From: Dokdonia sp.
Lineage (GTDB): Bacteria; Bacteroidota; Bacteroidia; Flavobacteriales; Flavobacteriaceae
Length of the DNA stretch: 64,000 nucleotides
Reading direction: 5' to 3'
Assembly: GCA_047630395.1 (NCBI GenBank)
Contig: JBLHXM010000004.1
Location: forward strand, 867-64,866
This document shows positions 621 through 56,400 of this stretch, piece after piece. The number at the start of each line of letters is the position of its first letter. Positions within the stretch are counted from its first letter, which is position 1. Both the position numbers and the translations under genes were made by a program. The notes beneath the pieces were generated by a model. That model saw only the letters and a list, made by a program, of their open reading frames with translations, was not told the DNA's origin and did no database searches.

Positions 621-1565
621 ATGAAACTACACACCCAAATTCCATTCTTGCCTTCTAAAACCCAATTTGGGTATGAAGATAAACTCTTGATGCTGGGATC
701 TTGTTTTGCCGAGAATATGGGTGAGCAATTAGAGCATCATAAATTTCAAGTGGAGGTCAATCCTTTTGGTATTCTCTTTCATCCATTGGCCATAGAACGT
801 GTGTTGCACGATGCGCATGTAGGCGCTATATATGACAAAAATTCTGTGTTTGAGCTTGACGGTGTCTGGAAATCTTTCCTTGCTCATAGTCGGTTGAATA
901 CGGTATCACAAGGAGCTATTCTCGATAAATTGAGGATGGCACAAAAACAGTTGAGACAAGCTGTTGAAGATGCATCTCATATTTTTATCACCTTAGGGAC
1001 GGCCTGGGTGTATCAAGATATTGCTTCTGGGACGCCAGTGGCCAATTGTCATAAAGCACCCCAAAAAGCCTTTGTCAAAGGGCTCATGCCAGTGGAGCAA
1101 ATTGTAGCCAGTTTAGAACGGCAACGAGCACTTATTGCTGAAATGAATCCCAAAGCTCAGGTAGTTTTTACGGTATCACCCGTGCGTCATCTCAAGGACG
1201 GGATGGTAGAAAATAACAGGAGTAAAGCGCATTTAATTTCAGGGGTACATGCCTTAGTAAATGGCACAGATACCCATTATTTTCCGGCCTATGAATTGAT
1301 GATGGATGAGCTCAGAGACTATCGATTCTATGCATCAGATATGCTGCATCCTTCAGGGCAGGCAATTCAATATATCTGGCAGCGTTTTGTAGAGGTGTAT
1401 GCTTTCGCGAAAGCGGAATCTACTCTTAAAGAGATCACCGTGATTCAAGCAGGATTGCAACATCGCCCTTTTAACGGTAGTGGTAAGGAACATCAGACTT
1501 TTCTTCAAAAAATTCACAAACGAATTAGCGCGATTCAAGCGAGATATCCGCATATTGAATTCTAA
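621..1565 (+). CDS. GSCFA-domain protein
   Basis: 314-aa ORF with the eponymous 'LGSCFAENMG' motif near the N-terminus. It contains one exact palindrome copy (1401-1414). Confidence 0.8.
   Translation: MKLHTQIPFLPSKTQFGYEDKLLMLGSCFAENMGEQLEHHKFQVEVNPFGILFHPLAIERVLHDAHVGAIYDKNSVFELDGVWKSFLAHSRLNTVSQGAILDKLRMAQKQLRQAVEDASHIFITLGTAWVYQDIASGTPVANCHKAPQKAFVKGLMPVEQIVASLERQRALIAEMNPKAQVVFTVSPVRHLKDGMVENNRSKAHLISGVHALVNGTDTHYFPAYELMMDELRDYRFYASDMLHPSGQAIQYIWQRFVEVYAFAKAESTLKEITVIQAGLQHRPFNGSGKEHQTFLQKIHKRISAIQARYPHIEF
1401..1414. repeat. palindrome GCTTTCGCGAAAGC, exact
   Basis: Inside the GSCFA CDS, read as A-F-A-K-A. Confidence 0.95.
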
Positions 1566-1669
1566 TAGAAAGGCTCATCTTTTGACGATGTAGCATCATA
1601 GCTTAAAACACAGGACGGACTCCCTGATCAAGAGGTATTGATCTTTGAGAGTATCTATTTTTTCTACGT

Positions 1670-1990
1670 TCACGATTCTATTTTTTGATGCAAACGAAGC
1701 CAACTGCTTCCTTTTATTGCTTCGACACCTTGCCTTTTTTATTAAAGCGCGAGCAGATTCACTGCACATATCACTGGCACAGCAAGTTATCAGAGTAGGG
1801 TTCCATTTTTTATTTGATTGATCTTGGAACCAATTTCTTGCAACGGAATATACTTGGATCCAGAGATAGCACCTTGTGCATATTCTGCCGCAGTGCGAAC
1901 GTCAATAATACTAGCGTCTCTCGATTGAAAATTCTTGTTTTTTTTGTTTTTTTGCCAAAAATAGATGGAGTAATCCCCTGCTGTTGTTTT
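1670..1990 (-). pseudogene. decayed single-domain rhodanese (frameshifted)
   Basis: ORF 1790-2098(-) encodes 'ASIIDVRTAAEYAQGAISGSKYIPLQEI' but stops before the active-site loop. The loop 'ITCCASDMCSESARALIKK' and a tail 'IKGSSWLRLHQKIES*' are readable just downstream, but only in the other two frames. There is no convincing ATG. Confidence 0.4.
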
Positions 1991-2084
1991 TGGGTAAAGA
2001 TATAATAGGATCTCTAATAATAGGGAGCGGGAGGCGATTTCTTGACGATATGCAGAACGTTTTTGTTTTAGATTCAAAACCAAA

Positions 2085-2678
2085 ATGAGTATCTTCAACC
2101 CAATGAAGGCTTTAAAATCTGACCGAAAATCCGAAATTATTCATGTTGCCGCTCGCCTTTTTCGAGAACGAGGTTATAGCGCGGTGACCATGCGTGACCT
2201 TGCAACCGATCTAGGGATTAAAGCGGCGAGTCTTTACAATCATATTACCTCAAAACAGCAAATCCTAAGTGAAATCATCCTCGTAATTGCCGAAGAATTT
2301 ACGGACGGGATAGAAGAGATTGCCGCCATGGATGCGGATGCTACTGTAAAATTGAAAAAGGTAGTTGCCCAGCATATTAGCTTGACTTCTGAAAATCCTT
2401 TTGGGATGGCAGCACTTAACAATGACTGGATGCATCTTGAGGATAAACTGGAGTATTATCAGCAGTTACGTAATCAATATGAGAAACGCTTTCGCGAAAT
2501 TGTGTTAGCCGGGCAACAAGCCGGAGAATTGAAAGGGGTCAGTCATGAAATCCTCCTATTCTCTATACTCAGTACATTGCGGAATCTTTATCTATGGATT
2601 CCTAAGAAAGAGGACCTTAAAAAGGATAAATTGATCGAAGATCTAAGTGAGATTTTGCTACAAGGAGTTGTACGTTAG
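2085..2678 (+). CDS. TetR/AcrR-family transcriptional regulator, probable regulator of the paa cluster
   Basis: N-terminal HTH 'RGYSAVTMRDLATDLGIKAASLYNHITSKQQIL'. 197 aa, located directly upstream of paaE. Confidence 0.8.
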   Translation: MSIFNPMKALKSDRKSEIIHVAARLFRERGYSAVTMRDLATDLGIKAASLYNHITSKQQILSEIILVIAEEFTDGIEEIAAMDADATVKLKKVVAQHISLTSENPFGMAALNNDWMHLEDKLEYYQQLRNQYEKRFREIVLAGQQAGELKGVSHEILLFSILSTLRNLYLWIPKKEDLKKDKLIEDLSEILLQGVVR

Positions 2679-3819: not shown

Positions 3820-3911
3820 TACGCTGTTTTGAGAATATCCGTTTTCTCTCCCCGTTGGAGAGATGCCTGAAGGGCAGAGAGGGTTTTCGCGATAGCAAAA
3901 AGAATACAGCC

Positions 3912-6144: not shown

Positions 6145-6642
6145 ATGACAGAAACGCAACACATAGCTCCACAATTCCTCGACATCTTGACATCTGTTTC
6201 GGATCCGGAAATTCCTGTGCTGAGCATTATGGATATGGGCGTCGTACGGGAGGCGATTGAAGTGGATGGTGTTGTAAAAGTTACGATTACACCGACGTAT
6301 TCTGGCTGTCCTGCGATGGATGTCATCGGGGATGATATTGTTACAGCTTTCGCGAAAGCGGGATTAAAAGCGACAATAACCCTTGTGCTCAGTCCCGCAT
6401 GGACCACGGACTGGATCACTCCTCGCGGCCGAAAAGCACTCGAAGATTATGGTATCGCCGCACCTTTATCGCCAGACGCGGATAAGGAAGCGTTGCTAGG
6501 AAATAAGAAAATTGTAAAATGTACAAACTGTGGCTCTACGGAAACACATTTAGTGAGTCAGTTTGGTTCAACTGCATGTAAAGCATTGTTTAAATGCGAT
6601 GTATGCCAAGAACCTTTTGATTATTTTAAATGCCTTAAATAA
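6145..6642 (+). CDS. paaD: phenylacetate degradation protein PaaD (DUF59/FeS-assembly-like)
   Basis: 'SDPEIPVLSIMDMGVVR' DUF59 motif plus a C-terminal CxxC...CxxC zinc ribbon. Contains an exact palindrome copy. Confidence 0.85.
   Translation: MTETQHIAPQFLDILTSVSDPEIPVLSIMDMGVVREAIEVDGVVKVTITPTYSGCPAMDVIGDDIVTAFAKAGLKATITLVLSPAWTTDWITPRGRKALEDYGIAAPLSPDADKEALLGNKKIVKCTNCGSTETHLVSQFGSTACKALFKCDVCQEPFDYFKCLK
6346..6359. repeat. palindrome GCTTTCGCGAAAGC, exact
   Basis: Inside paaD, read as A-F-A-K-A. Confidence 0.95.
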
Positions 6643-9342: not shown

Positions 9343-10554
9343 ATGGAAGCATATATCATAGACGGAGTAAGAACTCCAATAGGAAGTTATAAAGGAACCC
9401 TAAGTGCTGTACGTACAGATGATCTAGGAGCGCATGTTATACGCGAAGTCGTAAAACGAAATCCAAATATTCCTAAAGAAGCTTATGATGATGTCATCAT
9501 GGGCTGTGCAAATCAAGCGGGTGAGGACAATCGCAATGTAGCGCGTATGAGTTTGCTACTTGCAGGTCTGCCATTTTCTGTTCCTGGAGAAACTGTCAAT
9601 CGTTTATGTAGTAGCGGACTTTCTGCCATTATTCATGCGAATCGTGCGATTAAGGCTGGTGATGGAGATCTCTTTATTTCAGGAGGTGTTGAAAATATGA
9701 CCCGCGGACCCTATGTGATGGCGAAGCCAAGTTCAGCGTTTGGGGGGGATTCACAGATGTACGATTCTACCTTCGGATGGCGATTTATCAATCCAAAAAT
9801 GCGCGAATTATATGGCGTTGATGGTATGGGGAATACCGCTGAAAACCTAGTGGAGAAATATAATATCTCGCGAGAAGATCAAGATACATTTGCCTATAAC
9901 AGTCAGATGAAAGCCGCCAAGGCGCAAGCGAGCGGCCGACTAGCAAGAGAAATTATTCCCGTAGAAATTGCACAACGAAAAAAGGAGCCTCTTGTTTTTG
10001 CAAATGATGAATTCATAAAACCAAATAGCTCCAAAGAAATATTGGCAAAGCTACGCCCTGCCTTCAAAAAAGAAGGCGGAAGTGTTACAGCCGGAAACAG
10101 TTCAGGATTGAATGATGGTGCTGCGGCAACAATCATTGCTTCTGAAGCTGCAGTAAAAAAATACAATCTCAAACCATTGGCTCGCATTGTGAGTTCCGCG
10201 GTGGTAGGTGTAGAGCCTCGTATTATGGGAATTGGTCCTGTGCAAGCTTCAAATACAGCGTTGAAAAAGGCTGGATTAACAATGGCAGACATGGATGTGA
10301 TTGAGCTTAACGAAGCTTTTGCTTCGCAGGCGCTCGCATGTATTCGTGAATGGGGTCTCGCAGATGATGATGCACGTATCAATCCTAACGGAGGAAGTAT
10401 CGCTATTGGACATCCATTGGGTGTTACTGGAGCGCGTATTGCATATTCAGCGGCACTGGAGTTAAAAGAGAAAGGAAAGCGCTATGCTTTAATTACCATG
10501 TGTATTGGTGTCGGGCAAGGATATGCAGCTATTATTGAAAATGTGAATATGTAG
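9343..10554 (+). CDS. paaJ: 3-oxoadipyl-CoA / 3-oxo-5,6-dehydrosuberyl-CoA thiolase
   Basis: Thiolase signatures 'NRLCSSGL', 'GHPLGVTGAR' and 'CIGVGQG'. Confidence 0.85.
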   Translation: MEAYIIDGVRTPIGSYKGTLSAVRTDDLGAHVIREVVKRNPNIPKEAYDDVIMGCANQAGEDNRNVARMSLLLAGLPFSVPGETVNRLCSSGLSAIIHANRAIKAGDGDLFISGGVENMTRGPYVMAKPSSAFGGDSQMYDSTFGWRFINPKMRELYGVDGMGNTAENLVEKYNISREDQDTFAYNSQMKAAKAQASGRLAREIIPVEIAQRKKEPLVFANDEFIKPNSSKEILAKLRPAFKKEGGSVTAGNSSGLNDGAAATIIASEAAVKKYNLKPLARIVSSAVVGVEPRIMGIGPVQASNTALKKAGLTMADMDVIELNEAFASQALACIREWGLADDDARINPNGGSIAIGHPLGVTGARIAYSAALELKEKGKRYALITMCIGVGQGYAAIIENVNM

Positions 10555-10560: not shown

Positions 10561-10598
10561 GCTTTCCGACCTTCGCAAGAGCTTCGGTCGGCGAAAGC
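10561..10598. repeat. palindrome copy split by a 24-nt nested insert
   Basis: GCTTTC + CGACCTTCGCAAGAGCTTCGGTCG + GCGAAAGC. The outer halves rebuild the 14-mer exactly and the insert has its own CGACC/GGTCG termini. The element starts 7 nt after the paaJ stop. Confidence 0.85.
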
Positions 10599-10653: not shown

Positions 10654-13188
10654 ATGATTCTAGAATCTTATATCAATGGCAAGTGGGTGAGCGGTGACAA
10701 CACCAACACCCGATCTATGTACGATGCGATTACTGGTGAAGTGATTGGTCTTACAAGTACAGAAGGGTTAGATGTTGCTGGAGCGTTGCAATACGGTCGT
10801 GAGCACGGTCATATATTACGCAAAATGACTTTCCAGCAGCGAGGGAATATGATTAAAAAACTCGCGCTCTATCTCAATAAACGGAAAGAACATTTTTATG
10901 ATGTCAGCTATAGAACAGGAGCTACCCGTGTTGATAGTTGGATCGATATTGAAGGAGGTTTTGGTAATCTGTTTGCCAATGCAAGTCTGCGGAAGTTATT
11001 TCCAGATCAATCCTACGCTGTAGAAGGAGATCCCATAGATCTATCGCGTGGCGGTCGGTTTATGGCACACCATATCCTAGTACCAAAAAAAGGAGTTGCT
11101 GTTCATATCAATGCCTTTAATTTTCCAGTTTGGGGGATGCTCGAGAAGTGTGCTGTAAATTGGATGGCAGGTATGCCAGCCGTGGTGCTTCCCGCACCAC
11201 AGACCGCATTTTTAACGGAGGTTGTGGTCAAAGAAATTATCAAAAGTGGGATTCTTCCAGAAGGTGCTTTACAACTTTTGTCTGGACTGACGACCAATAT
11301 TCTAGATACTACAGAAAGTCAAGATGTTGTGACATTCACAGGAAGTGCACACACAGGGCTCAAGCTACGTGTACATCCTAGATTAATACAAGAAAGCGTT
11401 CCGTTTACAATGGAGGCAGATAGTTTGAATGCTTCTGTTCTCGGGCCGGATGCCGTGCCGGGTACTCCGGAGTTTGATCTGTTTGTAAAGGAAGTTCGTA
11501 AAGAAATGACAGTCAAATGTGGTCAGAAATGTACCGCCATTCGCCGGGCTATTGTTCCTGAAAATTTGATGGAAGATGTGCAAATTGCGCTCGCAAAACA
11601 ATTGGCAAGAACGGTGATAGGAGACCCCAAACTCAAAGAAGTGAGAATGGGAGCGCTTATCAATACCGATCATCGTGACGCGATTAAAAGCCAAATTGAA
11701 AAACTAACGACCACTGCACAAATTGTATACGGTTCCTTGGATACTGTGGAAGCCATGGGTGGCAATGATACCGTGGGTGCATTTATGAGCCCGATCTTAC
11801 TTCGAGAAGACGAACCGTTCAAGAATATACAGGTGCATGATGTAGAGGCCTTTGGTCCTGTAGCGACCTTGATGCCCTATAAAAATTTAGAGGATGCGAT
11901 TACGTTGGCACAAATGGGGAAAGGTTCTTTAGTGAGCTCGGTGGTTACGGCAGATGATGCTTTCGCGAAAGCATACACCATAGAAGCTGCGTCTCATCAT
12001 GGACGTATCTTAACCTTAAACAGAGAAAGTGCACCAGAAAGTACAGGTCACGGCTCACCATTACCTTTATTGGTACATGGCGGACCCGGACGTGCTGGAG
12101 GAGGAGAAGAAATGGGCGGTGTACGCGGAATCAAACATTTTATGCAGCGTTGTGCCGTGCAAGGAAGTCCGACAACACTTTCAGAAATTACAGGAATTTA
12201 TCAGCCTAACGGTGCGTATACGGAAGCAGAAAAACACCCATTTTCATATCACTATGAGGATATCAAACCAGGAATGAGTTTGAAAACACATAAACGTACG
12301 CTTACCGATAGCGATATTCAAAATTTTGCCAATCTGACGTGGGATCATTTCTATGCTCATACGGATATTACAAGCCTAGACGGGAGCATTTTCAAAAAAC
12401 GTACTGCCCACGGATATTTCATTATTTCGGCGGCAGCGGGATTGTTTGTGTACCCTAATAAAGGGCCAGTGAGTGCAAACTATGGACTGGAAGATATTCG
12501 TTTCCTACGTCCACTCTATCATAATGATACGATCTCTGTACGTTTGACCTGTAAGGAGAAACGCGAACGTGATGTAAGCGGACGCGAGCATCCAAGTGGC
12601 ATTGTAAAATGGTATGTAGAAGTTTTTGATGCAGAACCGGTCGACTATGAAAATGGAAAGACAGATGAAGAAGCCACGGCACTTGTAGCCGTCGCAACCA
12701 TCCTCACGATGGTAGAGAAAAAACAAACAACTTTTGTGGAGATGACTGATACTTCTATTGAAGATTGTCTATCTAAACTGACCGTAGACTCAAAACCAGC
12801 TTGGGGCGCTATGACGCCGCAACAAATGGTTGAGCATTTGGAATATAGCTATCGCATTGCCGCAGGAGAGGTGCAGGATTTTGAAGTGGCGACACCTGAT
12901 ACAATATTGGAAAAAGTAGCCGCAACGCTGTGGGATTACAATAAAATGCCCAAAGACTATAATTTTCCGCTATACGAAGCTGGCATTCAACCTGCTTTGA
13001 AACATGAAAATCTCGCTTTTGCGAAAGCGGCATTACTCAAAGCCCGTCAAGAGTATCTTGATTTTTATAAGAAAAGCCCAAAAGCAACTACGAAAAATGC
13101 TGTTTTTGGAGCACTCAATAAATATGAATGGTACTTGATGGAGCGAAAGCACCTAAATCATCATTTTGAACAATTTAATCTACTGTAA
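10654..13188 (+). CDS. paaZ: bifunctional PaaZ (aldehyde dehydrogenase + MaoC hydratase) with an extra C-terminal DUF1569/DinB-like domain
   Basis: ALDH catalytic 'GQKCTAIRR' and the MaoC region 'LTDSDIQNFANLTWDHFYAHTD'. The last ~155 aa ('WGAMTPQQMVEHLEY...KHLNHHFEQF') parallel the stand-alone DUF1569 protein at 47398-47838. Confidence 0.85.
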   Translation: MILESYINGKWVSGDNTNTRSMYDAITGEVIGLTSTEGLDVAGALQYGREHGHILRKMTFQQRGNMIKKLALYLNKRKEHFYDVSYRTGATRVDSWIDIEGGFGNLFANASLRKLFPDQSYAVEGDPIDLSRGGRFMAHHILVPKKGVAVHINAFNFPVWGMLEKCAVNWMAGMPAVVLPAPQTAFLTEVVVKEIIKSGILPEGALQLLSGLTTNILDTTESQDVVTFTGSAHTGLKLRVHPRLIQESVPFTMEADSLNASVLGPDAVPGTPEFDLFVKEVRKEMTVKCGQKCTAIRRAIVPENLMEDVQIALAKQLARTVIGDPKLKEVRMGALINTDHRDAIKSQIEKLTTTAQIVYGSLDTVEAMGGNDTVGAFMSPILLREDEPFKNIQVHDVEAFGPVATLMPYKNLEDAITLAQMGKGSLVSSVVTADDAFAKAYTIEAASHHGRILTLNRESAPESTGHGSPLPLLVHGGPGRAGGGEEMGGVRGIKHFMQRCAVQGSPTTLSEITGIYQPNGAYTEAEKHPFSYHYEDIKPGMSLKTHKRTLTDSDIQNFANLTWDHFYAHTDITSLDGSIFKKRTAHGYFIISAAAGLFVYPNKGPVSANYGLEDIRFLRPLYHNDTISVRLTCKEKRERDVSGREHPSGIVKWYVEVFDAEPVDYENGKTDEEATALVAVATILTMVEKKQTTFVEMTDTSIEDCLSKLTVDSKPAWGAMTPQQMVEHLEYSYRIAAGEVQDFEVATPDTILEKVAATLWDYNKMPKDYNFPLYEAGIQPALKHENLAFAKAALLKARQEYLDFYKKSPKATTKNAVFGALNKYEWYLMERKHLNHHFEQFNLL
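11957..11974. repeat. palindrome, exact, extended to 18 bp (ATGCTTTCGCGAAAGCAT)
   Basis: Inside paaZ, read as D-A-F-A-K-A-Y. Confidence 0.95.
13014..13029. repeat. palindrome variant CGCTTTTGCGAAAGCG (one central C->T)
   Basis: Inside the DUF1569-like tail of paaZ, read as A-F-A-K-A. Confidence 0.9.
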
Positions 13189-13986: not shown

Positions 13987-14586
13987 ATGATTTATAGTTT
14001 CAAAGGACATATTCCCGTTGTACACGAATCTAGCTTTGTACATCCGCTAGCTGCAGTGACAGGTAATGTTATTATAGGTAAAAACTGTTATATAGGGCCA
14101 GGAGCAGCCATACGAGGAGATTGGGGTGAGATCATTCTAGAGGATGGTGTCAATGTACAGGAGAACTGTACGGTTCATATGTTTCCAGGAAAATCGATTG
14201 TACTCAAAGAAGGGGCTCATGTGGGGCATGGTGCCGTCATTCATGGTGCCAATCTCGGTAGAAATTGTCTCATAGGGATGAATAGTGTTATCATGGATGA
14301 TGCACAAATAGGAGACGAATGTATCATAGGCGCGATGGCTTTTGTGAAAGCCGAAAGTATTATTCCCAACCGGAGCCTTGTCGTTGGGAATCCTGGCAAA
14401 ATTATAAAAGAAGTGTCAGATGAGATGATCGCATGGAAAACTGCCGGCACCAAACTCTATCAACAACTTCCTGCCGACTGCCATGCATCTTTAAGGGCGG
14501 TAGAACCATTACGTACGGTTCCAGAAAATAGACCTGCTCAGGAAGATTTTTACATGACACTGCAAGCAATGAAAAAGGATACATAA
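13987..14586 (+). CDS. paaY: hexapeptide-repeat (gamma-carbonic-anhydrase-like) protein PaaY
   Basis: Left-handed beta-helix repeats and a C-terminal 'AWKTAGTKLYQQL...AVEPLRTV' resembling E. coli PaaY (recalled from memory). Confidence 0.8.
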   Translation: MIYSFKGHIPVVHESSFVHPLAAVTGNVIIGKNCYIGPGAAIRGDWGEIILEDGVNVQENCTVHMFPGKSIVLKEGAHVGHGAVIHGANLGRNCLIGMNSVIMDDAQIGDECIIGAMAFVKAESIIPNRSLVVGNPGKIIKEVSDEMIAWKTAGTKLYQQLPADCHASLRAVEPLRTVPENRPAQEDFYMTLQAMKKDT

Positions 14587-15327: not shown

Positions 15328-15363
15328 AAGCGTAACCCTATTTTCGCGAAAGCGCAAATAAGG

Positions 15364-16998: not shown

Positions 16999-17071
16999 AG
17001 TTGATGTTTTCGGTAGGTAAGCTTTTGCGAAAACGCACAAAGCCTTTTATGAGGTGAAATAGGTTTTTAGA

Positions 17072-18418
17072 TTACGCTTTACTAAATATGCGGGCCCAGC
17101 TTTTAGCTTTTACCTTGATGTTCTTATTATTTTCTGAATTGTACTGAGATACAATGGATGCTTCGTGAAGTTTGTAAAATTCCGGATCGAAATTGGCATC
17201 CTTCAGATGTTCCATCACATAATCCGTATCGCGTTCTTCTGTGAGCCAGCGATCAAAAATCTCGTGTCTCATTCGTATTCCAAAGGTGTTAATACCTATA
17301 AATTTTCCGGTAGTGCTATCAGAATTCACCGTAATACACTTAGAGTCATCTGCATGTTTCCAGTGGAAATGTGTTTCATTTTCTCTAGGTTTTGCATATA
17401 CCCAACCGTAGGTCTGATACTCAATATCAAAAAACTTAGCACTATTAAACCAGTGTCCAGGGTTGTAGGCTGTGGGTCTCCCACAAATAGTTTGAGCCAA
17501 CGCTTCTCCCATCATACGCCCTGTGTACCAAACCGCTTCTATCGGACGACGGCCATTGATGCCTTCATGCTGTTCTGCACAGTCTCCTATGGCATAGATG
17601 TCAGGAATATTAGTTTCGAGCATAGGATTTACCTTAATACCACGACCTAGTTCGATACCACTCTCTTTTAAGAAATCAATATTGGGTGATACCCCTGCAG
17701 TAAGCCCTACCACATCGCAGGCAAGTTCTTCTCCCGTTTCTTCAATAATTACAGCGCGCGCATTGCCATTCTCGTCAGCGAGAATTTGTTTAAGATTGGT
17801 TCCTAAACGTAAATCAATATGGTGACTTTTAATATGCCGATTGAGCATTTCGCTTTCTCCCGATGGCAATACACCACTCCAGAAACTGTCTTCTCTTACG
17901 AGGAAGGTTACGGGGATTTTACGAGTTGCAAGCATTTCTGCCATCTCAATTCCTATAAGTCCGCCACCTACTATGACTGCGCGTTTACATACTTCTTTAT
18001 TAGGAGCGTTATCTTCCAGTTTCTGAAGATCTTGTGCGCTGTATAGGCCTTGGACGCCTCCTAAGTCTTGCCCAGGCCAACCAAATTTATTAGGCTTTGA
18101 ACCCACTGCTAGAATGAGTTTGTCATATGCCATCGATTCCCCATCAGCAAAGCGAAGTGTCTTTTGTGCGTGATCCACTTTCTGTACAAATGCTCGTTTG
18201 AGTTCGATACGATTTTTCTTCCAGAAATACGCTTCATACGGTTGTGTATGCTCAAACTTCATATGTCCCATATACACATACATTAAGGCAGTGCGTGAGA
18301 AAAAATAATCAGTTTCAGCAGAAATAATGGTGATGCGTTTATCAGAATTCTTTCGAATGTGTCGGGCGGCCGTCACACCTGATACCCCGTTTCCAATAAT
18401 GACAATATGTTCTTCCAT
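17072..18418 (-). CDS. NAD(P)/FAD-dependent pyridine-nucleotide-disulfide-type oxidoreductase
   Basis: Two dinucleotide-binding motifs, 'IVIIGNGVSGVTAA' and 'VIVGGGLIGIEMA'. Located 73 nt upstream of the polyferredoxin gene on the same strand. Confidence 0.8.
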   Translation of the reverse strand: MEEHIVIIGNGVSGVTAARHIRKNSDKRITIISAETDYFFSRTALMYVYMGHMKFEHTQPYEAYFWKKNRIELKRAFVQKVDHAQKTLRFADGESMAYDKLILAVGSKPNKFGWPGQDLGGVQGLYSAQDLQKLEDNAPNKEVCKRAVIVGGGLIGIEMAEMLATRKIPVTFLVREDSFWSGVLPSGESEMLNRHIKSHHIDLRLGTNLKQILADENGNARAVIIEETGEELACDVVGLTAGVSPNIDFLKESGIELGRGIKVNPMLETNIPDIYAIGDCAEQHEGINGRRPIEAVWYTGRMMGEALAQTICGRPTAYNPGHWFNSAKFFDIEYQTYGWVYAKPRENETHFHWKHADDSKCITVNSDSTTGKFIGINTFGIRMRHEIFDRWLTEERDTDYVMEHLKDANFDPEFYKLHEASIVSQYNSENNKNIKVKAKSWARIFSKA

Positions 18419-18435: not shown

Positions 18436-18451
18436 CGCTTTTGCGAAAGCG
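18436..18451. repeat. palindrome variant CGCTTTTGCGAAAGCG (same central C->T)
   Basis: Intergenic, 18 nt upstream of the start codon of the FAD oxidoreductase gene. Confidence 0.9.
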
Positions 18452-24353: not shown

Positions 24354-24357
24354 GTTT

Positions 24358-25272: not shown

Positions 25273-25444
25273 GTGCGTGTTTGTTTCGGTAATCTAACAG
25301 TTTTTGTCGTGATTGGTTTTATGATGCTCATACCAAGTACTTAAACTTAGTCCAATGTTTACATCATACTTTACAGGTACGGACAATTATTTTGTTTGAA
25401 AAACATTAGATCTACAGATGGCTAGCGGCATCAATGTACGAAAC

Positions 25445-25493: not shown

Positions 25494-25507
25494 GCTTTCG
25501 CGAAAGC
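25494..25507. repeat. palindrome GCTTTCGCGAAAGC, exact
   Basis: The only exact intergenic copy. It abuts the arsM stop codon (25508-25510). Confidence 0.95.
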
Positions 25508-29198: not shown

Positions 29199-29275
29199 TC
29201 CTACTTTTGAGCAAGAGGATGTTTTGGATGGTATATTAAGAATTTGGAGCATATAAGTTGTGGGTCGTTATTCAA

Positions 29276-33620: not shown

Positions 33621-33743
33621 GTATGATTCTGTTTACGGGCTATTAGTATCGCTTTCGCGAAATAGTCACAGAAGTTCGCGATTTTTTTTCAAAAGTAGGT
33701 TGTATTGAGATTTTGTAATTTCGCTTTAAGCAAAAACACACCT

Positions 33744-37982: not shown

Positions 37983-38774
37983 ATGCGATTGTTTCGTATC
38001 CTTTTTCAGTGTGGACTTATTATTTTTTTTACACTGCTGACCCAAATAGGAGGGGTCTTGTATGCGATCTCATTTGCTGGCTTTCGCCAAAGTAAAATCA
38101 AACGCTGGCTATGCTTTATAGGCCTATATGTATTGTGTACCTTTTTTGTATTGCCGTATTTGGCACCGTTATTTGGCCGCGAAAAAATTGCCACGAATGA
38201 TCAGATCAAAGTACACTCATTTTTTACGCTCCTTTGCAATCGTAATTACGTCGTTCCAGAAATGAACGCAGTGCTTTCAAATACACTGAATACAATCGCC
38301 AAAAAACATCCTTCTTTGGAAATTCACTGCTTGGATGCTAATTTCCCTTTTTGGAATGGCTTTCCCCTTTTACCGCATTTGAGCCATGTCGATGGTAAGA
38401 AATTAGATATTTCTTTAGTATATATGGATGCGGAAGGGATACCTACCAATAACAAACCGACACGATCAGGTTATGGTGCATTTGTAGAGCCCAAGCCCAA
38501 TGAGTATAATCAAATAGAAGTCTGCAAAGCCAAAGGGTATTGGCAATATGACTTTCCTAAGTATTTGACATTTGGAACGATCCATCAGGATTTGATATTT
38601 GGAAAAGAAGGTACTCGTGAGCTATTAACGGCAATACTTCAGCAGTCTGCTGTGTCTAAGGTATTTATTGAGCCTCATTTGCGAACGAGATTAAACGTAC
38701 AGCATGCCAAGTTGCGTTACCATGGTTGCAGAGCAGTGCGTCACGATGATCATATTCATCTACAAGTAAAATAG
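37983..38774 (+). CDS. LAS-superfamily zinc peptidase-like membrane protein (MepA/VanY-like metal site)
   Basis: Hx6D ('HVDGKKLD') and a C-terminal 'HDDHIH' HxH metal-ligand pattern. N-terminal TM helices. Confidence 0.45.
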   Translation: MRLFRILFQCGLIIFFTLLTQIGGVLYAISFAGFRQSKIKRWLCFIGLYVLCTFFVLPYLAPLFGREKIATNDQIKVHSFFTLLCNRNYVVPEMNAVLSNTLNTIAKKHPSLEIHCLDANFPFWNGFPLLPHLSHVDGKKLDISLVYMDAEGIPTNNKPTRSGYGAFVEPKPNEYNQIEVCKAKGYWQYDFPKYLTFGTIHQDLIFGKEGTRELLTAILQQSAVSKVFIEPHLRTRLNVQHAKLRYHGCRAVRHDDHIHLQVK

Positions 38775-41886: not shown

Positions 41887-42372
41887 CTAGCTCTTTTTGA
41901 TCCATGTTTCGTAGGTAAAGCCTACTGCATGTCGATGGTCCTTTTCGTGGAATTCGGATGTTTGAATTTTCCAATGAGAAGGGTCAATACTTGGAAAAAA
42001 TGCATCAGCCTCAAAGGTCCCGTGGACGCGTGTAAGTTCGATATGCGTGGCAAAGTCGAGCCCAATCTTATAAATCTCTCCGCCGCCAATAATAAAGGTG
42101 TTTGGGTCTTCTTTCGCGAAAGCGAGCGCATCTTCCATATCATGAACGACTACTGCTCCCTCAGCGATATACGCAGTGTTTCGGGTAATTACAATATGTG
42201 TGCGGTTGGGCAAAGGACTAGGGAAAGATTCCCAAGTTTTTCGTCCCATAATAATGTGATGCCCAGTAGTGAGCTTCTTAAATCGTTTGAAGTCGTCTGG
42301 AAGGCGCCATACAAGTTGGTTGTCTTTGCCTAAGGCATTATTTTCTGCCGCAGCGGCGATCATTGTAATCAT
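41887..42372 (-). CDS. folA: dihydrofolate reductase
   Basis: 'IAAAAENNALGKDNQLVWRLPDDFKRFKKLTTGHHIIMGRKTWES', 161 aa. Confidence 0.9.
   Translation of the reverse strand: MITMIAAAAENNALGKDNQLVWRLPDDFKRFKKLTTGHHIIMGRKTWESFPSPLPNRTHIVITRNTAYIAEGAVVVHDMEDALAFAKEDPNTFIIGGGEIYKIGLDFATHIELTRVHGTFEADAFFPSIDPSHWKIQTSEFHEKDHRHAVGFTYETWIKKS
42110..42123. repeat. palindrome, one mismatch (TCTTTCGCGAAAGC)
   Basis: Inside folA (minus strand), read as A-F-A-K-E. Confidence 0.9.
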
Positions 42373-42875: not shown

Positions 42876-43955
42876 ATGAAGAATTTTAGTAAGATATTCC
42901 CCGTTTTGAAACAGTACACTTATCTCAATACAGCGGCTTCTGGACTTTTGTCTACGCCCGTTTTGGAATGGCGTCAAGAACACGACTTGGACTTTTTAGT
43001 GATGGGAAGTAAATTAAAGGATCATCAAGCAAAATTGCTGAGCGGTGTTCGGGAAAAAGTGGGGGAACTATTCTCCTGTGCTCCCAATCGCGTGGCTTTG
43101 GTACCTAATTTTTCCTACGGTATGAATACGCTATTGGAAGGGATTTCAACGACCCAAAAAGTATTGCTTTTGAAGGAGGATTATCCTTCTGTAAATTGGC
43201 CGTTTACAGCTAGAGATTTTGCCGTGAGCTATACTCATATTGATGGAAACCTCGAGGAGAATGTAAAGACCGCTTTCGCGAAAGCGCAACCCGACATCTT
43301 TGCATTTTCATTAGTCCAATGGCTCAACGGAATAAAAATAAGCCATGACTTCTTGCGCCAACTCAAAGCAGATTACCCCGAGACCCTGCTCATTGCCGAT
43401 GGGACACAGTATCTAGGAACCGAAGCTTTTGATTTTGATAATTCACCGTTGGATGTGGTAGGCGGAAGTACCTATAAATGGATGAACGCCGGTTATGGCA
43501 ATGCACTCTTTTTATTTAAGGAAGGCGTCGCTCAGAAAGTAGCGCCAAAAACAACAGGTTTTAATTCGGTGCAAGGAAAATACAAGCCGCAAGAGGGTAG
43601 CTTTTTAGGGCATTTTGAGCCAGGACATCAGGATACATTGAATTTTGGAAGTTTGGGAGCTGCTATTGATTTGATCCGTCAAATAGGAATGTCAACCATT
43701 CAAGAACGTATTGCAGCCATCGCTCAAAAAGCTAAAACCGCCTTTATTGAACGTGGATTGTTGGAAGATTCAGTCGTGCAACGCTCTGAGCATAGTTCTA
43801 TTTTTAATCTAAAGGGAGGTCAGAGCCTTGTTCAGCGTTTAGAGGATAAGGATATTTTATGTGTGGCTCGAGGTCCAGGAGTTCGTGTGAGTTTTCACTA
43901 TTTCAATACCGAAAAGGACTTGGAACAGTTGCTCGCTGTTTTGGATGCAAAATAA
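42876..43955 (+). CDS. class-V aminotransferase (cysteine desulfurase / selenocysteine lyase-like)
   Basis: 359 aa with PLP-lysine context 'GGSTYKWMNAG' and 'LIADGTQYLG'. Confidence 0.7.
   Translation: MKNFSKIFPVLKQYTYLNTAASGLLSTPVLEWRQEHDLDFLVMGSKLKDHQAKLLSGVREKVGELFSCAPNRVALVPNFSYGMNTLLEGISTTQKVLLLKEDYPSVNWPFTARDFAVSYTHIDGNLEENVKTAFAKAQPDIFAFSLVQWLNGIKISHDFLRQLKADYPETLLIADGTQYLGTEAFDFDNSPLDVVGGSTYKWMNAGYGNALFLFKEGVAQKVAPKTTGFNSVQGKYKPQEGSFLGHFEPGHQDTLNFGSLGAAIDLIRQIGMSTIQERIAAIAQKAKTAFIERGLLEDSVVQRSEHSSIFNLKGGQSLVQRLEDKDILCVARGPGVRVSFHYFNTEKDLEQLLAVLDAK
43271..43286. repeat. palindrome, exact, 16 bp
   Basis: Inside the class-V aminotransferase gene, read as A-F-A-K-A. Confidence 0.95.
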
Positions 43956-44600: not shown

Positions 44601-45233
44601 ATGACGAAAGAAGCAATAAAATCACGCGTCGACTTGGGCGAACTATTACCCTTAATGGAGGAGTTTTATACCATTCAAGGTGAGGGAGCTCACACTGGGA
44701 AAAGTGCTTACTTTATACGTATCGGTGGTTGCGATGTCGGTTGCCATTGGTGTGATGTGAAAGAAAGTTGGGATGCAGCAATCCATCCACCTACTGAAGC
44801 AGATGCCATTGTTGCAAATGCCGTAAAATATAGTGATACCATTGTTATTACAGGTGGTGAGCCTCTAATGTGGGATATGGAGCCGCTTACGCGAAAACTG
44901 AAAGCTAAGAATCTTCAGGTGCACATTGAGACCTCAGGAGCATATCCACTATCAGGTACTTGGGATTGGATTTGCTTATCTCCTAAAAAACGAATGCCTC
45001 CAAAAGCCGAAGTGCTCGAAAAGGCAAACGAATTGAAAGTCATCATATTTAATAAAAATGATTTTGATTTTGCCGAAGAACATGCAGCAAAAGTGGGTCC
45101 AAACTGCACTCTTTTTCTGCAGCCAGAATGGAGTGTGCGTGAAAAAATGATTCCCTTAATAGTAGATTACGTCATGGCACATCCCAAATGGAAAGTGTCG
45201 CTGCAAACGCATAAGTATTTAAATATACCGTAG
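44601..45233 (+). CDS. queE: 7-carboxy-7-deazaguanine synthase (radical SAM)
   Basis: 'EEFYTIQGEG' and 'GGCDVGCHWCD' cluster motifs, about 210 aa. Confidence 0.75.
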   Translation: MTKEAIKSRVDLGELLPLMEEFYTIQGEGAHTGKSAYFIRIGGCDVGCHWCDVKESWDAAIHPPTEADAIVANAVKYSDTIVITGGEPLMWDMEPLTRKLKAKNLQVHIETSGAYPLSGTWDWICLSPKKRMPPKAEVLEKANELKVIIFNKNDFDFAEEHAAKVGPNCTLFLQPEWSVREKMIPLIVDYVMAHPKWKVSLQTHKYLNIP

Positions 45234-47950: not shown

Positions 47951-48649
47951 ATGACAAGAACAAAGGCATCTTTTACTATTAAGGACTGGTCTCAAAACGA
48001 TCGGCCCAGAGAGAAATTACTCGACAAAGGACGCAGTGCTTTGACAGATGCCGAGTTGGTAGCCATCTTAATTGCCTCTGGAAGTAGAAAGGAAAGCGCG
48101 GTGGATTTGAGTCGGCGTATCTTGGCTTCCGTTGACAATAATTTGTCGGAGTTGGGAAAGCTTTCGGTAGAGGATTTGCAGCAGTTTAATGGAATTGGTA
48201 TGGCCAAAGGAGTCACTATTGTGGCGGCTTTAGAATTGGGGCGCAGAAGGAGGGATGGAGTTGCGCTTTCGCGAAAGCGTATATCTTCAAGTAAATCTGT
48301 CTTCGACCTACTACAACCTATCTTGGGAGATTTACCACATGAAGAGTTTTGGATTCTTTATTTAAATAATTCAAACAAGGTTCTTCAAAAGCAACAACTC
48401 AGTAAAGGCGGGATTACTGGAACATTGGTTGATCCCCGATTAGTGCTTAAAGTAGCTTTGGCATTGGGAGCTGTAGCCCTGATTTTGGCACATAATCATC
48501 CTTCGGGAACATTAAAGCCCAGTACTTCCGACAAGCAACTTACCGCTAAATTGAAGAAGGCGGCAGAGAGTCTGGATATCCGAGTTTTGGACCATGTAAT
48601 TGTAACGGAAAAGGCGTATTTTAGCTTTGCCGATGAAGGCTTGCTATAA
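47951..48649 (+). CDS. radC: RadC-family JAB-domain protein
   Basis: HhH region 'LQQFNGIGMAKG' and JAMM motif 'ILAHNHPSGTLKPSTSD'. Confidence 0.85.
   Translation: MTRTKASFTIKDWSQNDRPREKLLDKGRSALTDAELVAILIASGSRKESAVDLSRRILASVDNNLSELGKLSVEDLQQFNGIGMAKGVTIVAALELGRRRRDGVALSRKRISSSKSVFDLLQPILGDLPHEEFWILYLNNSNKVLQKQQLSKGGITGTLVDPRLVLKVALALGAVALILAHNHPSGTLKPSTSDKQLTAKLKKAAESLDIRVLDHVIVTEKAYFSFADEGLL
48264..48279. repeat. palindrome, exact, 16 bp
   Basis: Inside radC, read as L-S-R-K-R. Confidence 0.95.
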
Positions 48650-52626: not shown

Positions 52627-52634
52627 TATTTTAA

Positions 52635-53480
52635 ATGAAGCATTTTATTATTACCGTGCTAACAATTTTTGTTAGCTTTTCTTCTGTCGCACAAAGCATC
52701 CATGATTATGAATATGTCCTTGTGCCTGTCCAGTATGATTTCTTAAGTTACGCGGATAAATATCAACTCAATTCGCTAACGGTCTTTCTATTCAAGAGAG
52801 AAGGATTTAAGGTGTATAATAACACTATCGAAAATCTTCCTGCAGCGGTTGCCGCTAATAAATGCAAAGCCCTTTATGCAAATGTCAAAGATAACTCTGG
52901 CGTTATACGTACTCGTTTACAAATCGAACTCAAGGATTGTGACGGTACTGTGATTTTTGTTTCAGAGGTAGGTGATAGCAAATTAAAGGATTTCACAAAA
53001 GCTCATCATCAAGCATTACGAGAAGCTTTTATGTCTGTTGAAGATTTGAATTATACATTTAAACCCAAGACTTCAGAAGCTCCTAAGGTACAGAGTGCTG
53101 TCACAGATGTTGCTTCCATAACAAAGAAGGAAGTGAAAAAAAAGGAGAAAGAAACAGTGGTCACTCGCCAAAATGTCCCAATTACAATTACGCATAAATC
53201 TTCACCACAAGTGCTGGATGTTCCGTCAAAAACGATAGAGACTCCTGTCATCTACAAGAGTGAGAATAGTAACTATAGCCTCGTTAAAAAAGAGGAGAAC
53301 TATGTTATTTATGATGATTCATTCATTATAGGAAAAGCCGAAGCAACTTCGGAAGGTCAATTTTTAATCAGTACGTCATCCTTTAATGGTGTGGGACGCT
53401 TAGAAGGCGATTCCTTTATTATAGATCGTCAAATTAAAGGCGTTAATGGACTGGTACAAATGATTTTTACAAAGGAATAA
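52635..53480 (+). CDS. hypothetical secreted protein
   Basis: Signal peptide 'VSFSSVAQ'. No recognisable domain. Confidence 0.4.
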   Translation: MKHFIITVLTIFVSFSSVAQSIHDYEYVLVPVQYDFLSYADKYQLNSLTVFLFKREGFKVYNNTIENLPAAVAANKCKALYANVKDNSGVIRTRLQIELKDCDGTVIFVSEVGDSKLKDFTKAHHQALREAFMSVEDLNYTFKPKTSEAPKVQSAVTDVASITKKEVKKKEKETVVTRQNVPITITHKSSPQVLDVPSKTIETPVIYKSENSNYSLVKKEENYVIYDDSFIIGKAEATSEGQFLISTSSFNGVGRLEGDSFIIDRQIKGVNGLVQMIFTKE

Positions 53481-56400
53481 TGAAAAAAGTATTCGGTCTC
53501 ATCGCTTTAGGTCTCATGCTAAGCTGTGGGGAGAATTCCACCGAAAAGGCGGTTTCAGAAGACAGCCCAACGGTAATTCAGGAGGTTGCTAACCTCTTTG
53601 AACAAATACCTTCCTCCCAAAGTGGAATTACCTTTGCCAATACACTTAAGGAAAACGTCGGTACTTTAGAAAATCTATTTGATTTTGATTATTTCTATAA
53701 CGGAGCTGGTGTTGGCATAGTCGACGTTAATAACGACGGACTACAAGATCTTTTCTTTACAGGTAACCAGGTTGAAAACAAACTTTATCTCAATAAAGGA
53801 AACTTGCAATTCGAAGATATTTCCGAAAGCGCAGGAGTCAACGTAGGTAAGCAATGGGCAAATGGTGTCACCTTTGCCGATGTCAATAATGACGGATGGA
53901 TGGATATCTACGTATCCCAAGGTGGTCCCAAACAAGCTATAGATAGAAAAAATGTATTATACCTCAATGAGGAAGGGGTACGCTTTCGCGAAAGCGCACA
54001 AAGTCTCAATATTGCCGATGATGGTATCAGTACCCAGTCCATATTCTTTGATTATGATAATGATGGCGATTTGGATCTTGTAGTGTCCAACGAAAATGAA
54101 TTTTATGGTCTCGATCCTCAACGCTTCTTTAAAACAATGGAGATCGAAAAGAACCTCGCCAAGAGTTCTGTTCAGCTCTATGAAAATACAGGGAATTCAT
54201 ATGTAAAAGTGACTAAAAAAGCGGGTCTGCTAAAACCTTCTTTTGGCTTAGGTCCCATTGTAAGTGATATTAATAATGATGGCTGGTTGGATATTTATGT
54301 AGCCAATGATTATTATGTGCCTGACGTGATGTACATCAATAATGGAGATGGCACGTTTACCGATAAAATAAAAGAACAAACCAAGCAAGTTTCCTTCTAC
54401 GGTATGGGTGTAGATATTGCAGATATCAACAACGATAATCTACAAGATATCTTTGTGCTGGACATGGCTGCCAGTGATCATGTGCGCTCCAAAACCTTAA
54501 TGGCAAGCATGAATGAAGATCGCTTTAATATGCTCGTAGATGATTTTGGATTTGCACACCAGTATATGTTCAATTCGTTGCAATTGAATCAAGGAAATGG
54601 GAAATTTCATAATGTGGTGCAACAAGCACACATGGCAAAAACCGACTGGAGTTGGGCAGGCCTTATCGCCGATTTGGATAATGATAGTTGGCGAGATGTT
54701 TATGTAACCAATGGCTATCGTCGATATGCATTGGATAATGATTTACAAGGTCAAGTACGAGAAACCCAACGGGCTTTTCAAGGCAAAGTGCCCTTGGACG
54801 TAAAGCAGAAATTGTATGATGCGATGCCCACTGAGAAACTGAGTAACATCATGTTTCACAACAAAGGCGATATCAACTTTAAAAATGTAGCTTACCAATG
54901 GGGCTTGGCGGCTCCTTCCTATTCTAATGGTGGTGCTTACGCCGATTTAGACAATGATGGAGATCTTGAGTTGGTTGTGAGTAATATCGACGACGAAGCA
55001 TTCTTATTTAAAAACAATGCTTCCGAGAAGAAAATAGGAAATTATGTGCGTGTAAATCTCAAAGGAAGCACCTCAGAACCCTTTGCTAAAATTACGATAC
55101 AGTATGGGGCCGAAGAACAAGTGTATGAAGTAAAGAGAACCAAAGGGTATCTTTCGGCGACGGAGAACGTGGCGCATTTTGGATTGGGAACGATTACGTC
55201 AATAGATAAAATTAAGGTGCATTGGTTGTCCGGAAAAGTGGAAGAACGAACGAATGTAGATGTAAATAGAGTATTACTATTTGATGAGGTAGATGCGACA
55301 GGGAATGCGCTTGCTGTCTTTGGAAAAAAAATCTATACAGAAGGTTCGTACGCTTTCGCGAAAGCAACTCCAATAGGATTACAATTCACACACAAAGAGA
55401 ATACGTATAATGACTTCTCGCTAGAAGTTTTATTGCCGTACAAACAATCTACTTTAGGGCCAGCGATGGCCAAAGGAGATGCGAATGGTGACGGATTGGA
55501 AGACATATATGTAGGTGGTGCGTCGGGACAAGCTGGCGTGTTGTTTCTACAAAACGCGACTGGATTTAAGAAATCCTTGCAGCCCGCTTTTGCAAAGAGT
55601 GCGGCATCTGAAGATATGGAATCCTTGTTTTTTGATGCCGATGGTGATGGCGATCAAGACTTGGTCGTCGTGAGTGGTGGAAATACTTTGGAAGATGGCG
55701 CCGCAGCGTATAAAAATCGCTTGTATTTGAACACAGAGGGAGTATTTAAATCGTCTGACCTAGGGGACGATGCTACCAGCAGTAAATCGATCGCTGCTAT
55801 TGATTACGATGCCGATGGTGATGCAGATCTCATTGTGGGGAATCGTATACAACCGCATCACTTTCCGGTGAGTGCACCGTCAATCATATATCGAAATGAT
55901 AGTGGCGTTTTTACCGATGTAACAGAGCGTGTTGCGCCAGGATTGAAGGACTTTGGAATTGTCAATAAGGTTATTCAAACCGACTTTGATGCTGATGGAG
56001 ATCCTGATTTTATGGTGGTAGGGGAGTGGACGCATATTGGAATGTTTCAGAATAACAATGGTGTTTTTGAAGAGGTTTCAAAGGAGTATGGCGTAGATCA
56101 ACAAAAAGGGTGGTGGTTTACAATCACTGAGACGGATGTTAATAAAGATGGTTTGCCAGATTATATTGTTGGTAATATTGGAGCCAATGTCAAGTATAAA
56201 GCAAGTGTAGCGAAACCTTTTAAAGTTTTTGCTAGTGATTTTGATGATAATGGCACCTTTGACCTTGTATTGAGCAATGAGTATAATGGGAATTACGTGC
56301 CTGCTCGTGGAAAAGAATGTAGCACACAACAGATGCCTTTTGTCTCTGATAAGTTTGAAACCTACGCCGATTTTGCCAATGCCACTTTGAGTGATATTTA

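Follow-up and report, generated by a model that had tools for sequence, protein, structure and literature searches.

The DNA analysed here, referred to as the window, is a 64-kb stretch (64,000 nucleotides) of contig JBLHXM010000004.1 from Dokdonia sp., a member of the Flavobacteriaceae. It has a G+C content of about 40%, and contigs from several marine metagenomes are identical to it. It carries the paa operon for phenylacetate, a radical-SAM cluster of the arsenosugar type, and genes for DHFR, RadC, and an FG-GAP protein. The window contains 13 exact copies of a 14-base palindrome, GCTTTCGCGAAAGC, against a mean of 0.00 in 100 dinucleotide-preserving shuffles; at up to two mismatches, 25 copies were found against 0.33 expected. 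Eight of the exact copies are read as the peptide AFAKA, two as FRES, and two as LSRK, and the one at 25494 is non-coding. The hosts are unrelated housekeeping genes, coding for GSCFA, PaaD, PaaZ, GT2, TIGR04282/DUF2064, rhodanese, M90 peptidase, class-V aminotransferase, RadC, and FG-GAP/VCBS proteins. The initial annotation had listed these 13 copies with their frames, called their number a large excess, and likened the motif to HIP1 (highly iterated palindrome 1) of cyanobacteria. All copies and frames were confirmed, and the number of copies is far above expectation in related loci of the lineage as well. The motif is particular to the Dokdonia lineage. Its genic copies originated in place, through point substitutions where the sequence was already similar, and very probably it is a real signal under selection.

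In genes of the plus strand, AFAKA copies lie at 1401..1414 in a GSCFA-family gene (621..1565; whole footprint about 1383-1432), at 6346..6359 in paaD (6145..6642), at 11959..11972 in a paaZ-like aldehyde dehydrogenase/MaoC gene (10654..13188), at 43272..43285 in a class-V aminotransferase gene (42876..43955), and at 55352..55365 in an FG-GAP/ASPIC-UnbV protein gene (53480..56818). The last gene also hosts a FRES copy at 53982..53995. On the minus strand, AFAKA is encoded at 24202..24215 in a GT2 glycosyltransferase gene (23667..24380), at 28415..28428 in a TIGR04282/DUF2064 transferase gene (28087..28689), and at 28954..28967 in a rhodanese gene (28713..29252). The GT2 copy is exact in the relatives L131 and L139 and has decayed to GCTTTGGCAAAAGC in the relative L132. 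The other FRES copy (21883..21896) is located in a plus-strand gene without Pfam match (21516..22262) and is exact in L131, too. Both LSRK copies are in plus-strand genes. The one at 31821..31834 is close to the N-terminus of an M90 peptidase and belongs to the window's only full 24-bp palindrome (TTTACGCTTTCGCGAAAGCGTAAA); the one at 48265..48278 lies between the N-terminal and JAB domains of radC (47951..48649). The non-coding copy (25494..25507) adjoins the stop codon of a minus-strand methyltransferase gene (25508..26476), and L131 and L132 have it at the same position.

The four one-mismatch copies of the initial annotation proved correct. Two of them have the sequence GCTTTTGCGAAAGC, in which C6 is changed to T: one is at 13015..13028 in paaZ, where the change is synonymous, and the other is at 18437..18450, directly upstream of the annotated ATG of a pyridine-nucleotide oxidoreductase gene (17072..18418, minus strand). 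The third, ACTTTCGCGAAAGC at 21227..21240, is read as TFAKA in a GH113 gene; it is exact in L139 and aligns ungapped with 37 outgroup orthologues. The fourth, TCTTTCGCGAAAGC at 42110..42123, is read as AFAKE in the DHFR gene (41887..42372, minus strand). The sites described as degenerate or half copies are two-mismatch copies in five cases, i.e. GCTTTCGCGAAATT at 2488..2501 in a TetR-family regulator gene of the paa cluster, GTTTTCGCGATAGC at 3883..3896 at the start of paaA, ATTTTCGCGAAAGC at 15340..15353 and GCTTTCGCGAAATA at 33651..33664, both non-coding, and GCTTTTGCGAAAAC at 17021..17034; the remaining one, given as 19466, is a lone half-site at 19469. Three further two-mismatch copies were added: GCTTTTGTGAAAGC at 14338..14351, in which both changes are C to T at a CpG, GCTTTCGCCAAAGT at 38080..38093, and GCTTACGCGAAAAC at 44885..44898, which is the weakest of the set and may be a chance match. 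The split copy noticed at 10561 is real. It occupies 10561..10598 in the spacer after a thiolase gene (9343..10554, plus strand) and consists of GCTTTC, a 24-nt insert (CGACCTTCGCAAGAGCTTCGGTCG), and GCGAAAGC. The break is exactly at the motif centre, the insert is partly self-complementary, and a run of A follows; the split copy could be one hairpin nested in another, or what is left of a former copy after an insertion. The Rfam scan of the window returned one tRNA only (30940-31012), and the motif matches no Rfam family.

The conserved arsenosugar/arsenolipid-type cluster (23667-30724, minus strand) has four exact copies in about 5 kb. Its genes code for CMD, a DUF3641 radical-SAM protein, rhodanese, the TIGR04282 transferase, a protein with a type IX secretion system (T9SS) tail, PNP phosphorylase, a SAM methyltransferase, DUF547, and GT2. 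The window's sub-lineage and D. sinensis/PRO95 have the genes of the cluster in different orders, the latter with an inserted SusC/SusD pair. The GT2 gene (23667-24380) is called with 228 aa in two Logan contigs (L124 and L126) and with 237 aa elsewhere; the DNA is 100% identical, and the difference is one of gene calling. Among the window's genes (paa operon, arsenosugar cluster, DHFR, RadC, MgsA, etc.), no candidate gene for a reader or enzyme was found.

Restriction to the Dokdonia lineage

The motif has a density of 0.2-0.4 copies/kb in all nine independent lineage loci, which are the window, L131, L132, D. sinensis, the metagenome-assembled genome (MAG) MFD03250, Dokdonia SIP_700_Bin12, PRO95, D. 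ponticola, and L219. About 20 kb around the DUF2064/TIGR04282 orthologue was examined in eight further lineage genomes. Two of these are metagenomic relatives with protein identities of 90% and 84%, three are MAGs, and the others are D. sinensis, D. ponticola, and Dokdonia sp. PRO95; every locus has 4-8 exact copies per 13-21 kb. The motif-bearing DUF2064/TIGR04282 protein shares 70-74% identity with Dokdonia proteins and about 62% with those of Kordia. A scan of genome collections covered 80 loci with a DUF2064 gene among the matches listed. The motif is present in all three loci from Dokdonia-lineage MAGs, absent from the 76 loci of other genera (about 1.4 Mb; Kordia, Tenacibaculum, Polaribacter, Lacinutrix, Aquimarina, Flagellimonas, and others), and represented by its inner 10-mer only in one Leeuwenhoekiella locus. 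In every locus of the lineage, and in none outside it, the motif's 12-mers are the most frequently repeated words by a wide margin. This clean phylogenetic on/off boundary should let phylogenetic profiling find the responsible gene. No comparable iterated motif was seen in the 20-kb samples of other genera. Autumnicola edwardsiae (L181:12432-13165) and Aequorivita soesokkakensis (L206:17565-17810) have a different repeat, made of twin hairpins AAACCTGACAGGTTT-TCG-AAACCTGTCAGGTTT. This repeat has no relation to the Dokdonia motif; its copies follow one another within about 700 bp in the former species and about 230 bp in the latter.

The 222 kb of lineage DNA contain 61 exact, 9 one-mismatch, and 15 two-mismatch copies, the exact copies outnumbering the one-mismatch ones about 7:1. 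Over 61 sites, the symmetry extends outward to TAC...GTA, as had been noted for the window, with T in 75% at -3, A in 52% at -2, and C in 73% at -1. Extrapolated from the density of 0.2-0.4 per kb, a 3.3-Mb genome would have roughly 700-1200 copies. A metagenome scan with the 20-mer TACGCTTTCGCGAAAGCGTA gave at least 120 matches, all listed ones being marine contigs with 30-42% G+C; the contigs among the matches listed contain 246 copies of the 14-mer in 913 kb. The motif is usable as a diagnostic marker of Dokdonia-lineage contigs in metagenomes. Ten contigs coding for the same protein are clonal with the window (0-1 differences) and offer no population polymorphism at the sites to compare.

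The outer dinucleotide of the motif seems less constrained in D. sinensis, where 20.6 kb contain 11 inner cores vs 6 full 14-mers. At four sites of the D. sinensis locus L134 (8220, 11461, 16407, and 18766), the inner 10-mer TTTCGCGAAA is intact and the outer GC of one half is altered. In viruses, the scan of IMG/VR with the 14-mer returned mainly single chance matches, many of them in high-GC contigs, the 18-mer was found in three viral contigs only, and no cultured phage has the motif above chance. The low-GC viral contigs L054, L091, and L116/L119 of IMG/VR carry two to three copies of the 14-mer within 11-13 kb and may be prophages or phages of the Dokdonia lineage.

Constraint on DNA and origin by substitution

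AFAKA occurs 34 times in 76.5k residues encoded by open reading frames (ORFs) of the lineage (44 per 100k) and not once in 490k residues from ORFs of other Flavobacteriaceae. In 34 of 34 cases, the motif itself or a variant with one mismatch encodes it, a spelling that has a probability of about 0.9% under local codon usage. The peptides FRES and LSRK are likewise raised in lineage ORFs. Since AFAKA is absent outside the lineage and has a single spelling within it, the DNA motif imposes the peptide and not the reverse, which upholds the proposal that the constraint acts on DNA. The motif thereby forces AFAKA, FRES, and LSRK, together with skewed codons, into hundreds of proteins. In orthologous comparisons with 74% and 64% flank identity, the motif is exact in 54% and 38%, respectively, vs 1.5% and 0.2% expected under flank-like drift; these comparisons are partly non-independent, and the excess is still two orders of magnitude. 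This degree of retention, together with the presence in nine of nine loci, supports the view of a lineage-wide signal like HIP1.

Comparison with orthologues lacking the motif shows how the genic copies arose. For 11 of the 12 orthologous genic site groups, outgroup orthologues have no gap within 11 residues of the motif. The AFAKA position of the DUF2064 protein reads AF-x-x-(A/G)-F in 77 outgroup orthologues, all ungapped, and the region of the DHFR copy is aligned to solved DHFR structures without gap, too. As the orthologue alignments are ungapped, the genic copies are substitutions and not insertions. The earlier suggestion of in-place convergence, as opposed to insertion of a miniature inverted-repeat transposable element (MITE), thus stands for genic copies.

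Decay follows a pattern as well. The mismatches of 24 near-copies cluster at the two outermost bases and position 6, and seven of the nine changes at position 6 are C to T at the outer CpG. C6>T is also synonymous in the commonest frame, which is the simpler account of this CpG bias. Site loss is seen between close relatives: the rhodanese copy reads GATTTTGCAAAAGC in L131, a relative with 90% identity.

Spacing and the 50-bp unit

The position of copies relative to genes was assessed by a crude gene call that made 85% of the DNA coding. By this call, 37% of the 14-mers in lineage loci are non-coding, as are 47% of the non-ascertained 14-mers in metagenome contigs and 80% of the full 20-mers. 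Per base, the 14-mer is 4-5 times and the 20-mer more than ten times as dense in non-coding DNA as in genes; non-coding DNA has room for the complete palindrome of 20-22 bp. The window, with 12 of its 13 exact copies in genes, is atypical; the description of the motif as scattered through coding sequence is right for the window and wrong for the lineage. With the consensus 22-mer, TTAC-GCTTTCGCGAAAGC-GTAA, a TAA stop arises on both strands, two codons downstream of AFAKA and in its frame. This stop helps account for the large non-coding share of the full form, and for the genic frame-0 copies reading ...AFAKAY (TAC/TAT). Divergent genes flank 31% of the non-coding copies, tandem genes 54%, and convergent genes 15%. 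On both strands, the sequence upstream of the copies is rich in T and that downstream rich in A, the downstream 10 nt having 45% A and 19% T.

The copies, roughly one in each 3-5 kb, are spaced far more evenly than random. In the null model, each locus kept its numbers of genic and non-coding copies, and 1000 simulations were run for 176 gaps. Gaps shorter than 500 bp were observed once vs 34.5 times expected (simulation minimum 20), and gaps shorter than 1 kb 12 times vs 56 times expected (simulation minimum 38). The coefficient of variation of the gaps is 0.58 vs 0.98 expected (simulation minimum 0.82). The modal gap is 2-4 kb, and the closest pair is 223 bp apart. As a mutational process would space its sites randomly, a purely mutational origin is disfavoured.

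The unit is larger than the 14-26 bp first assigned to it. It is a 50-bp two-fold-symmetric composite around the 14-mer core. Read 5' to 3' on either strand, it consists of 15 nt that are T/G-rich and almost C-free with one free position, then TAC-GCTTTCGCGAAAGC-GTA, and then 15 nt that are A/C-rich and almost G-free. In the 30-nt flanks of 59 lineage copies, read on the plus strand, G minus C amounts to +4.5 for the left flank and -3.9 for the right one, vs about 0 ± 3.7 at random positions. The 26 arms of the 13 exact copies in the window contain 29 C in 390 positions vs 79 ± 8 expected, and five of the 29 are at one position. Among the matches listed, 235 dereplicated metagenomic sites (470 half-sites) have 3-10% C from -18 to -4 on the 5' side. 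The edge of the arm is sharp, C being back to 13-17% at -19 (13% in the half-site tally), and at -8 C is at its background of 18%. The free position, -8/+8, can be seen in the window at 11951, 25486, and 28407, and at 43293 and 54003. In AFAKA-frame genes, the free position on the sense strand (+8) is G in 44%, as if proteins place G-initial codons there. Position -8 would provide a built-in negative control within the footprint.

The same arm pattern is present at 117 sites that no ORF of at least 80 codons covers in any of the frames, and is thus not a codon effect. In genic arms, C depletion is about equal at all three codon positions. T peaks at each third base (-4, -7, -10, -13, and -16), with a frequency of 0.54 vs 0.38 and 0.43 at the other phases, and this phase is anchored to the motif and not to the reading frame. 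Non-coding copies in metagenome loci L221-L340 have the 3-nt T period, too, which is unusual for non-coding DNA. At 12 paired orthologous positions, the difference in G minus C per 30 nt between motif-bearing and motif-lacking sequences is +3.5 for the left side and -3.7 for the right side, which indicates that the arms evolve together with the core. The non-coding sites, the equal depletion at all codon positions, the anchoring to the motif, and the absence of the skew in motif-lacking orthologues together rule out an artefact of codon or protein context.

Base pairing does not explain the arms. Arm-to-arm pairing is no better than that of shuffled arms (z = 0.13), and composition-preserving shuffles have the same duplex energy as the real arms, which rules out an extended hairpin. 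As DNA, the 14-mer hairpin is weak (-2.1 kcal/mol), and that of the 20-mer has -6.3 kcal/mol. The 7-mer half-site outside full or decayed copies was found 7 times vs 5.7 expected. C>T together with A>G would fit the net changes in the arms. A footprint left purely by deamination of exposed single strands is nonetheless disfavoured, as the phased T replaces A and G rather than C, and the depletion is not centred on synonymous positions; for the same two reasons, sequence selection fits better than deamination.

Function and comparison with known systems

We hold, with about as much doubt as belief, that the motif is a selected protein-recognition signal with a role in uptake or recombination as its leading function. 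Once made, copies are held at the DNA level against synonymous drift and lost by decay mainly at the outer CpG. A dimeric protein probably reads the motif as duplex DNA, and such a symmetric, sequence-specific reader would agree with a half-site that never accumulates alone, a weak 14-mer hairpin, and unpaired arms. The strand-specific, 3-nt-phased arms suggest that each monomer might engage one strand of the adjoining 15 nt or so in 3-nt steps. The motif could then be a 'self DNA' tag, needed once per few kb by the uptake or recombination machinery, and would act like the uptake signal sequence (USS) of Pasteurellaceae and the DNA uptake sequence (DUS) of Neisseria, and in the manner currently suggested for HIP1. 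For HIP1, a link to transformation has been reported (bioRxiv 10.1101/2024.09.10.611283; 10.64898/2026.06.24.733823), its sites are conserved and regarded as under selection (PMC5861425), and uptake sequences are known to reshape proteomes (PMC2817400). A role in uptake or recombination specifically is proposed tentatively, as the likeliest single function. A more detailed version, which we consider rather unlikely, is that the 14-20-bp palindrome is a duplex anchor from which a filament-forming single-stranded-DNA protein, RecA- or DprA-like with 3 nt per subunit, is loaded on each C-free, T-phased arm, making a self-DNA mark every 3 kb or so. To our knowledge, a duplex anchor with two phased single-strand arms is undescribed for any such signal. 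If true, this anchor-plus-arms reading would give Bacteroidota their first self-recognition system of the uptake-sequence or Chi type.

Several points weigh against a selected uptake or recombination signal. Its functional part is inferred. We know of no natural competence in Dokdonia, and the literature searches, none of them directed at competence, turned up no report of it. The uptake sequences known so far have 9-12 nt and are not palindromic. Sites of architectural or regulatory proteins are usually degenerate, while exact copies greatly exceed one-mismatch copies here. Selection against deletions between close identical repeats could be partly behind the even spacing. The lineage DNA examined amounts to about 1.1 Mb in all and consists of fragments, not whole chromosomes. 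The metagenome set was ascertained by the 20-mer, which inflates its TAC/GTA frequencies and non-coding share.

Among the rival explanations, a lineage-specific nucleoid or chromosome-organisation protein may bind the motif, which would then be kept for folding, segregation, or division control, in the style of Noc and the Noc-binding site (NBS), SlmA and the SlmA-binding site (SBS), MatP and matS, or ParB and parS, or in a structural role as Xu et al. argue for HIP1 (PMC5861425). An exact palindrome of 14-20 bp is what a dimer binding duplex DNA would need, free half-sites are not in excess, and the copies are conserved, evenly spaced, and lineage-specific. The parS, NBS, SBS, and matS sites are palindromes, too, with 12-16 bp; they are often genic, are read by dimers, and are spread across the chromosome. 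We nonetheless consider this explanation doubtful: such sites are normally degenerate and number tens per genome, whereas the extrapolated number of about 900 for the Dokdonia motif is roughly ten times that of known systems, and the strand-specific, 3-nt-phased, C-free arms have no counterpart there. The TTTC/GAAA blocks are one base nearer the centre in the Dokdonia motif than in parS or NBS. The motif could also be a recombination or repair signal on broken DNA, either a two-way Chi-like stop for AddAB/RecBCD or a programmed cleavage site, with the 3'-ended strand as RecA loading zone. The T/G-rich, C-poor strand is the top one on the left and the bottom one on the right, and these are the strands that would end 3' at the motif after opening, cutting, or resection of the DNA, or after Chi recognition from either side. 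RecA prefers GT-rich DNA and forms a filament in which a subunit covers 3 nt and a turn about 18 nt, matching the 3-nt phasing over 15-18 nt or so. Like the motif, Chi occurs about once per 4-5 kb in E. coli, is recognised exactly in an enzyme-like manner, is genus-specific, and has GT-rich surroundings on the RecA-receiving strand; E. coli Chi lies in GT-rich islands, as Tracy, Chedin and Kowalczykowski reportedly described in 1997. Known Chi sites, however, are 5-8 nt long, asymmetric, strand-biased, and read as single-stranded DNA. A 7-mer half-site should then abound alone, and it does not, the enrichment being confined to the full palindrome. This explanation is a lead taken from the geometry of the strands, and we judge it, with its putative cleavage, improbable.

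An origin without selected function would be a neutral mutational drive linked to methylation, in which an orphan methyltransferase acts on TCGCGA and a very-short-patch-type repair converts near-cognates. The core is the NruI-type hexamer, C>T changes prevail at the outer CpG as expected for a methylated cytosine, and Elhai proposed such a link for HIP1 (PMC4390886). Such a drive should place sites randomly, contrary to the strongly even spacing. The sites of methyltransferases and of this repair are at most about 8 bp long, not 14-50 bp. At codon positions 1 and 2, the arms are constrained with much the same strength as at position 3, contrary to mutation-selection balance, and synonymy of C6>T explains the CpG bias more simply. 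We therefore regard the drive as quite improbable, and the spacing together with the equal arm constraint at three codon positions speaks against biased repair or gene conversion, which the initial annotation had named as a possible cause. Self-inserting miniature elements, such as repetitive extragenic palindromes (REP), bacterial interspersed mosaic elements (BIME), REPINs mobilised by a REP-associated tyrosine transposase (RAYT), MITEs, or the in-frame palindromic elements of Rickettsia, are also abundant short palindromic repeats, the REP-type ones being enriched between genes, as the motif is, and one copy in the window is split by an insert. REP and REPIN are, in contrast, imperfect hairpins of 20-40 nt with a conserved tetranucleotide, strictly extragenic, arranged in doublets or clusters, and spread by transposition, whereas the Dokdonia motif is 53-63% genic (lineage 14-mers), has no indels at its genic sites, never forms doublets or clusters, and has a weak hairpin and unpaired arms, which follow a compositional rule without consensus sequence. 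Compared with MITEs and the Rickettsia type, genic Dokdonia sites have no added block relative to empty orthologous sites and are equal to them in length. No RAYT (Y1 transposase) gene is present among about 40 window ORFs scanned against Pfam. A mobile element is very improbable. The same low probability applies to an element acting in RNA as a terminator hairpin, mRNA stabiliser, or processing site. Some copies adjoin stop codons, and the 20-mer could form its hairpin; the T-rich upstream and A-rich downstream flanks on both strands are the reverse of an intrinsic terminator, the gene context with its divergent and convergent pairs is wrong for it, and most window copies lie mid-gene on either strand.

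Genome-wide iterated signals such as HIP1, USS/DUS, and Chi are few, and they are informative on how cells recognise and repair their own DNA. The function of HIP1 is still disputed after 30 years, and the Dokdonia motif is an independent case in another phylum. Its host genus is marine, cultivable, and much studied (MED134, PRO95, and DSW-1), and the imposition of an exact 14-bp palindrome on hundreds of genes across such a genus would surprise specialists. The motif offers sharper handles than HIP1, namely a long exact core, a bounded 50-bp footprint, strand-specific arms, and even spacing; the sharp footprint and the clean boundary make the role of iterated palindromes directly testable. 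The motif could also have consequences for how genetic tools for bacteria of the Dokdonia lineage are designed. It seems undescribed: a literature search covering 8.3 million full texts gave no match for the 14-mer or 12-mer string, for a Dokdonia palindrome or methylome, or for iterated palindromes in Flavobacteria, a passing mention elsewhere being possible.

HIP1 (GCGATCGC) shares many properties with the Dokdonia motif. Both are hyper-abundant exact palindromes that occur intergenically and, in every frame, within genes. HIP1 is further described as spreading by substitution, conserved beyond neutral expectation, and lineage-specific with variants; it bears a CpG-containing hexamer as a possible methyltransferase target, and its function is debated (PMC5861425, PMC4390886). 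The two differ in host and sequence, HIP1 belonging to cyanobacteria and GCTTTCGCGAAAGC to a lineage of Flavobacteriaceae, and in length, HIP1 having 8 bp and the Dokdonia motif 14-20 bp. The Dokdonia motif is about ten times rarer per kb, and its short-range spacing is even. We know of no report for HIP1 of 15-nt strand-specific C-free arms, 3-nt phasing, or a sharp edge. USS and DUS resemble the motif in that they are read in several frames and leave peptides imprinted on the proteome (PMC2817400). They are taxon-specific, with hundreds to thousands of exact copies, and are over-represented intergenically yet common in genes; a strict core is accompanied by an extended weak flank consensus. 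Even spacing has been reported for USS. In contrast, USS and DUS are 9-12 nt long and asymmetric, and their hosts are proven competent with biased uptake, while the Dokdonia motif is a perfect palindrome with symmetric arms. The motif is hence an analogue of HIP1 and of USS/DUS and a member of neither, and its 50-bp composite footprint, phased strand-specific arms, and free position are new for this kind of signal.

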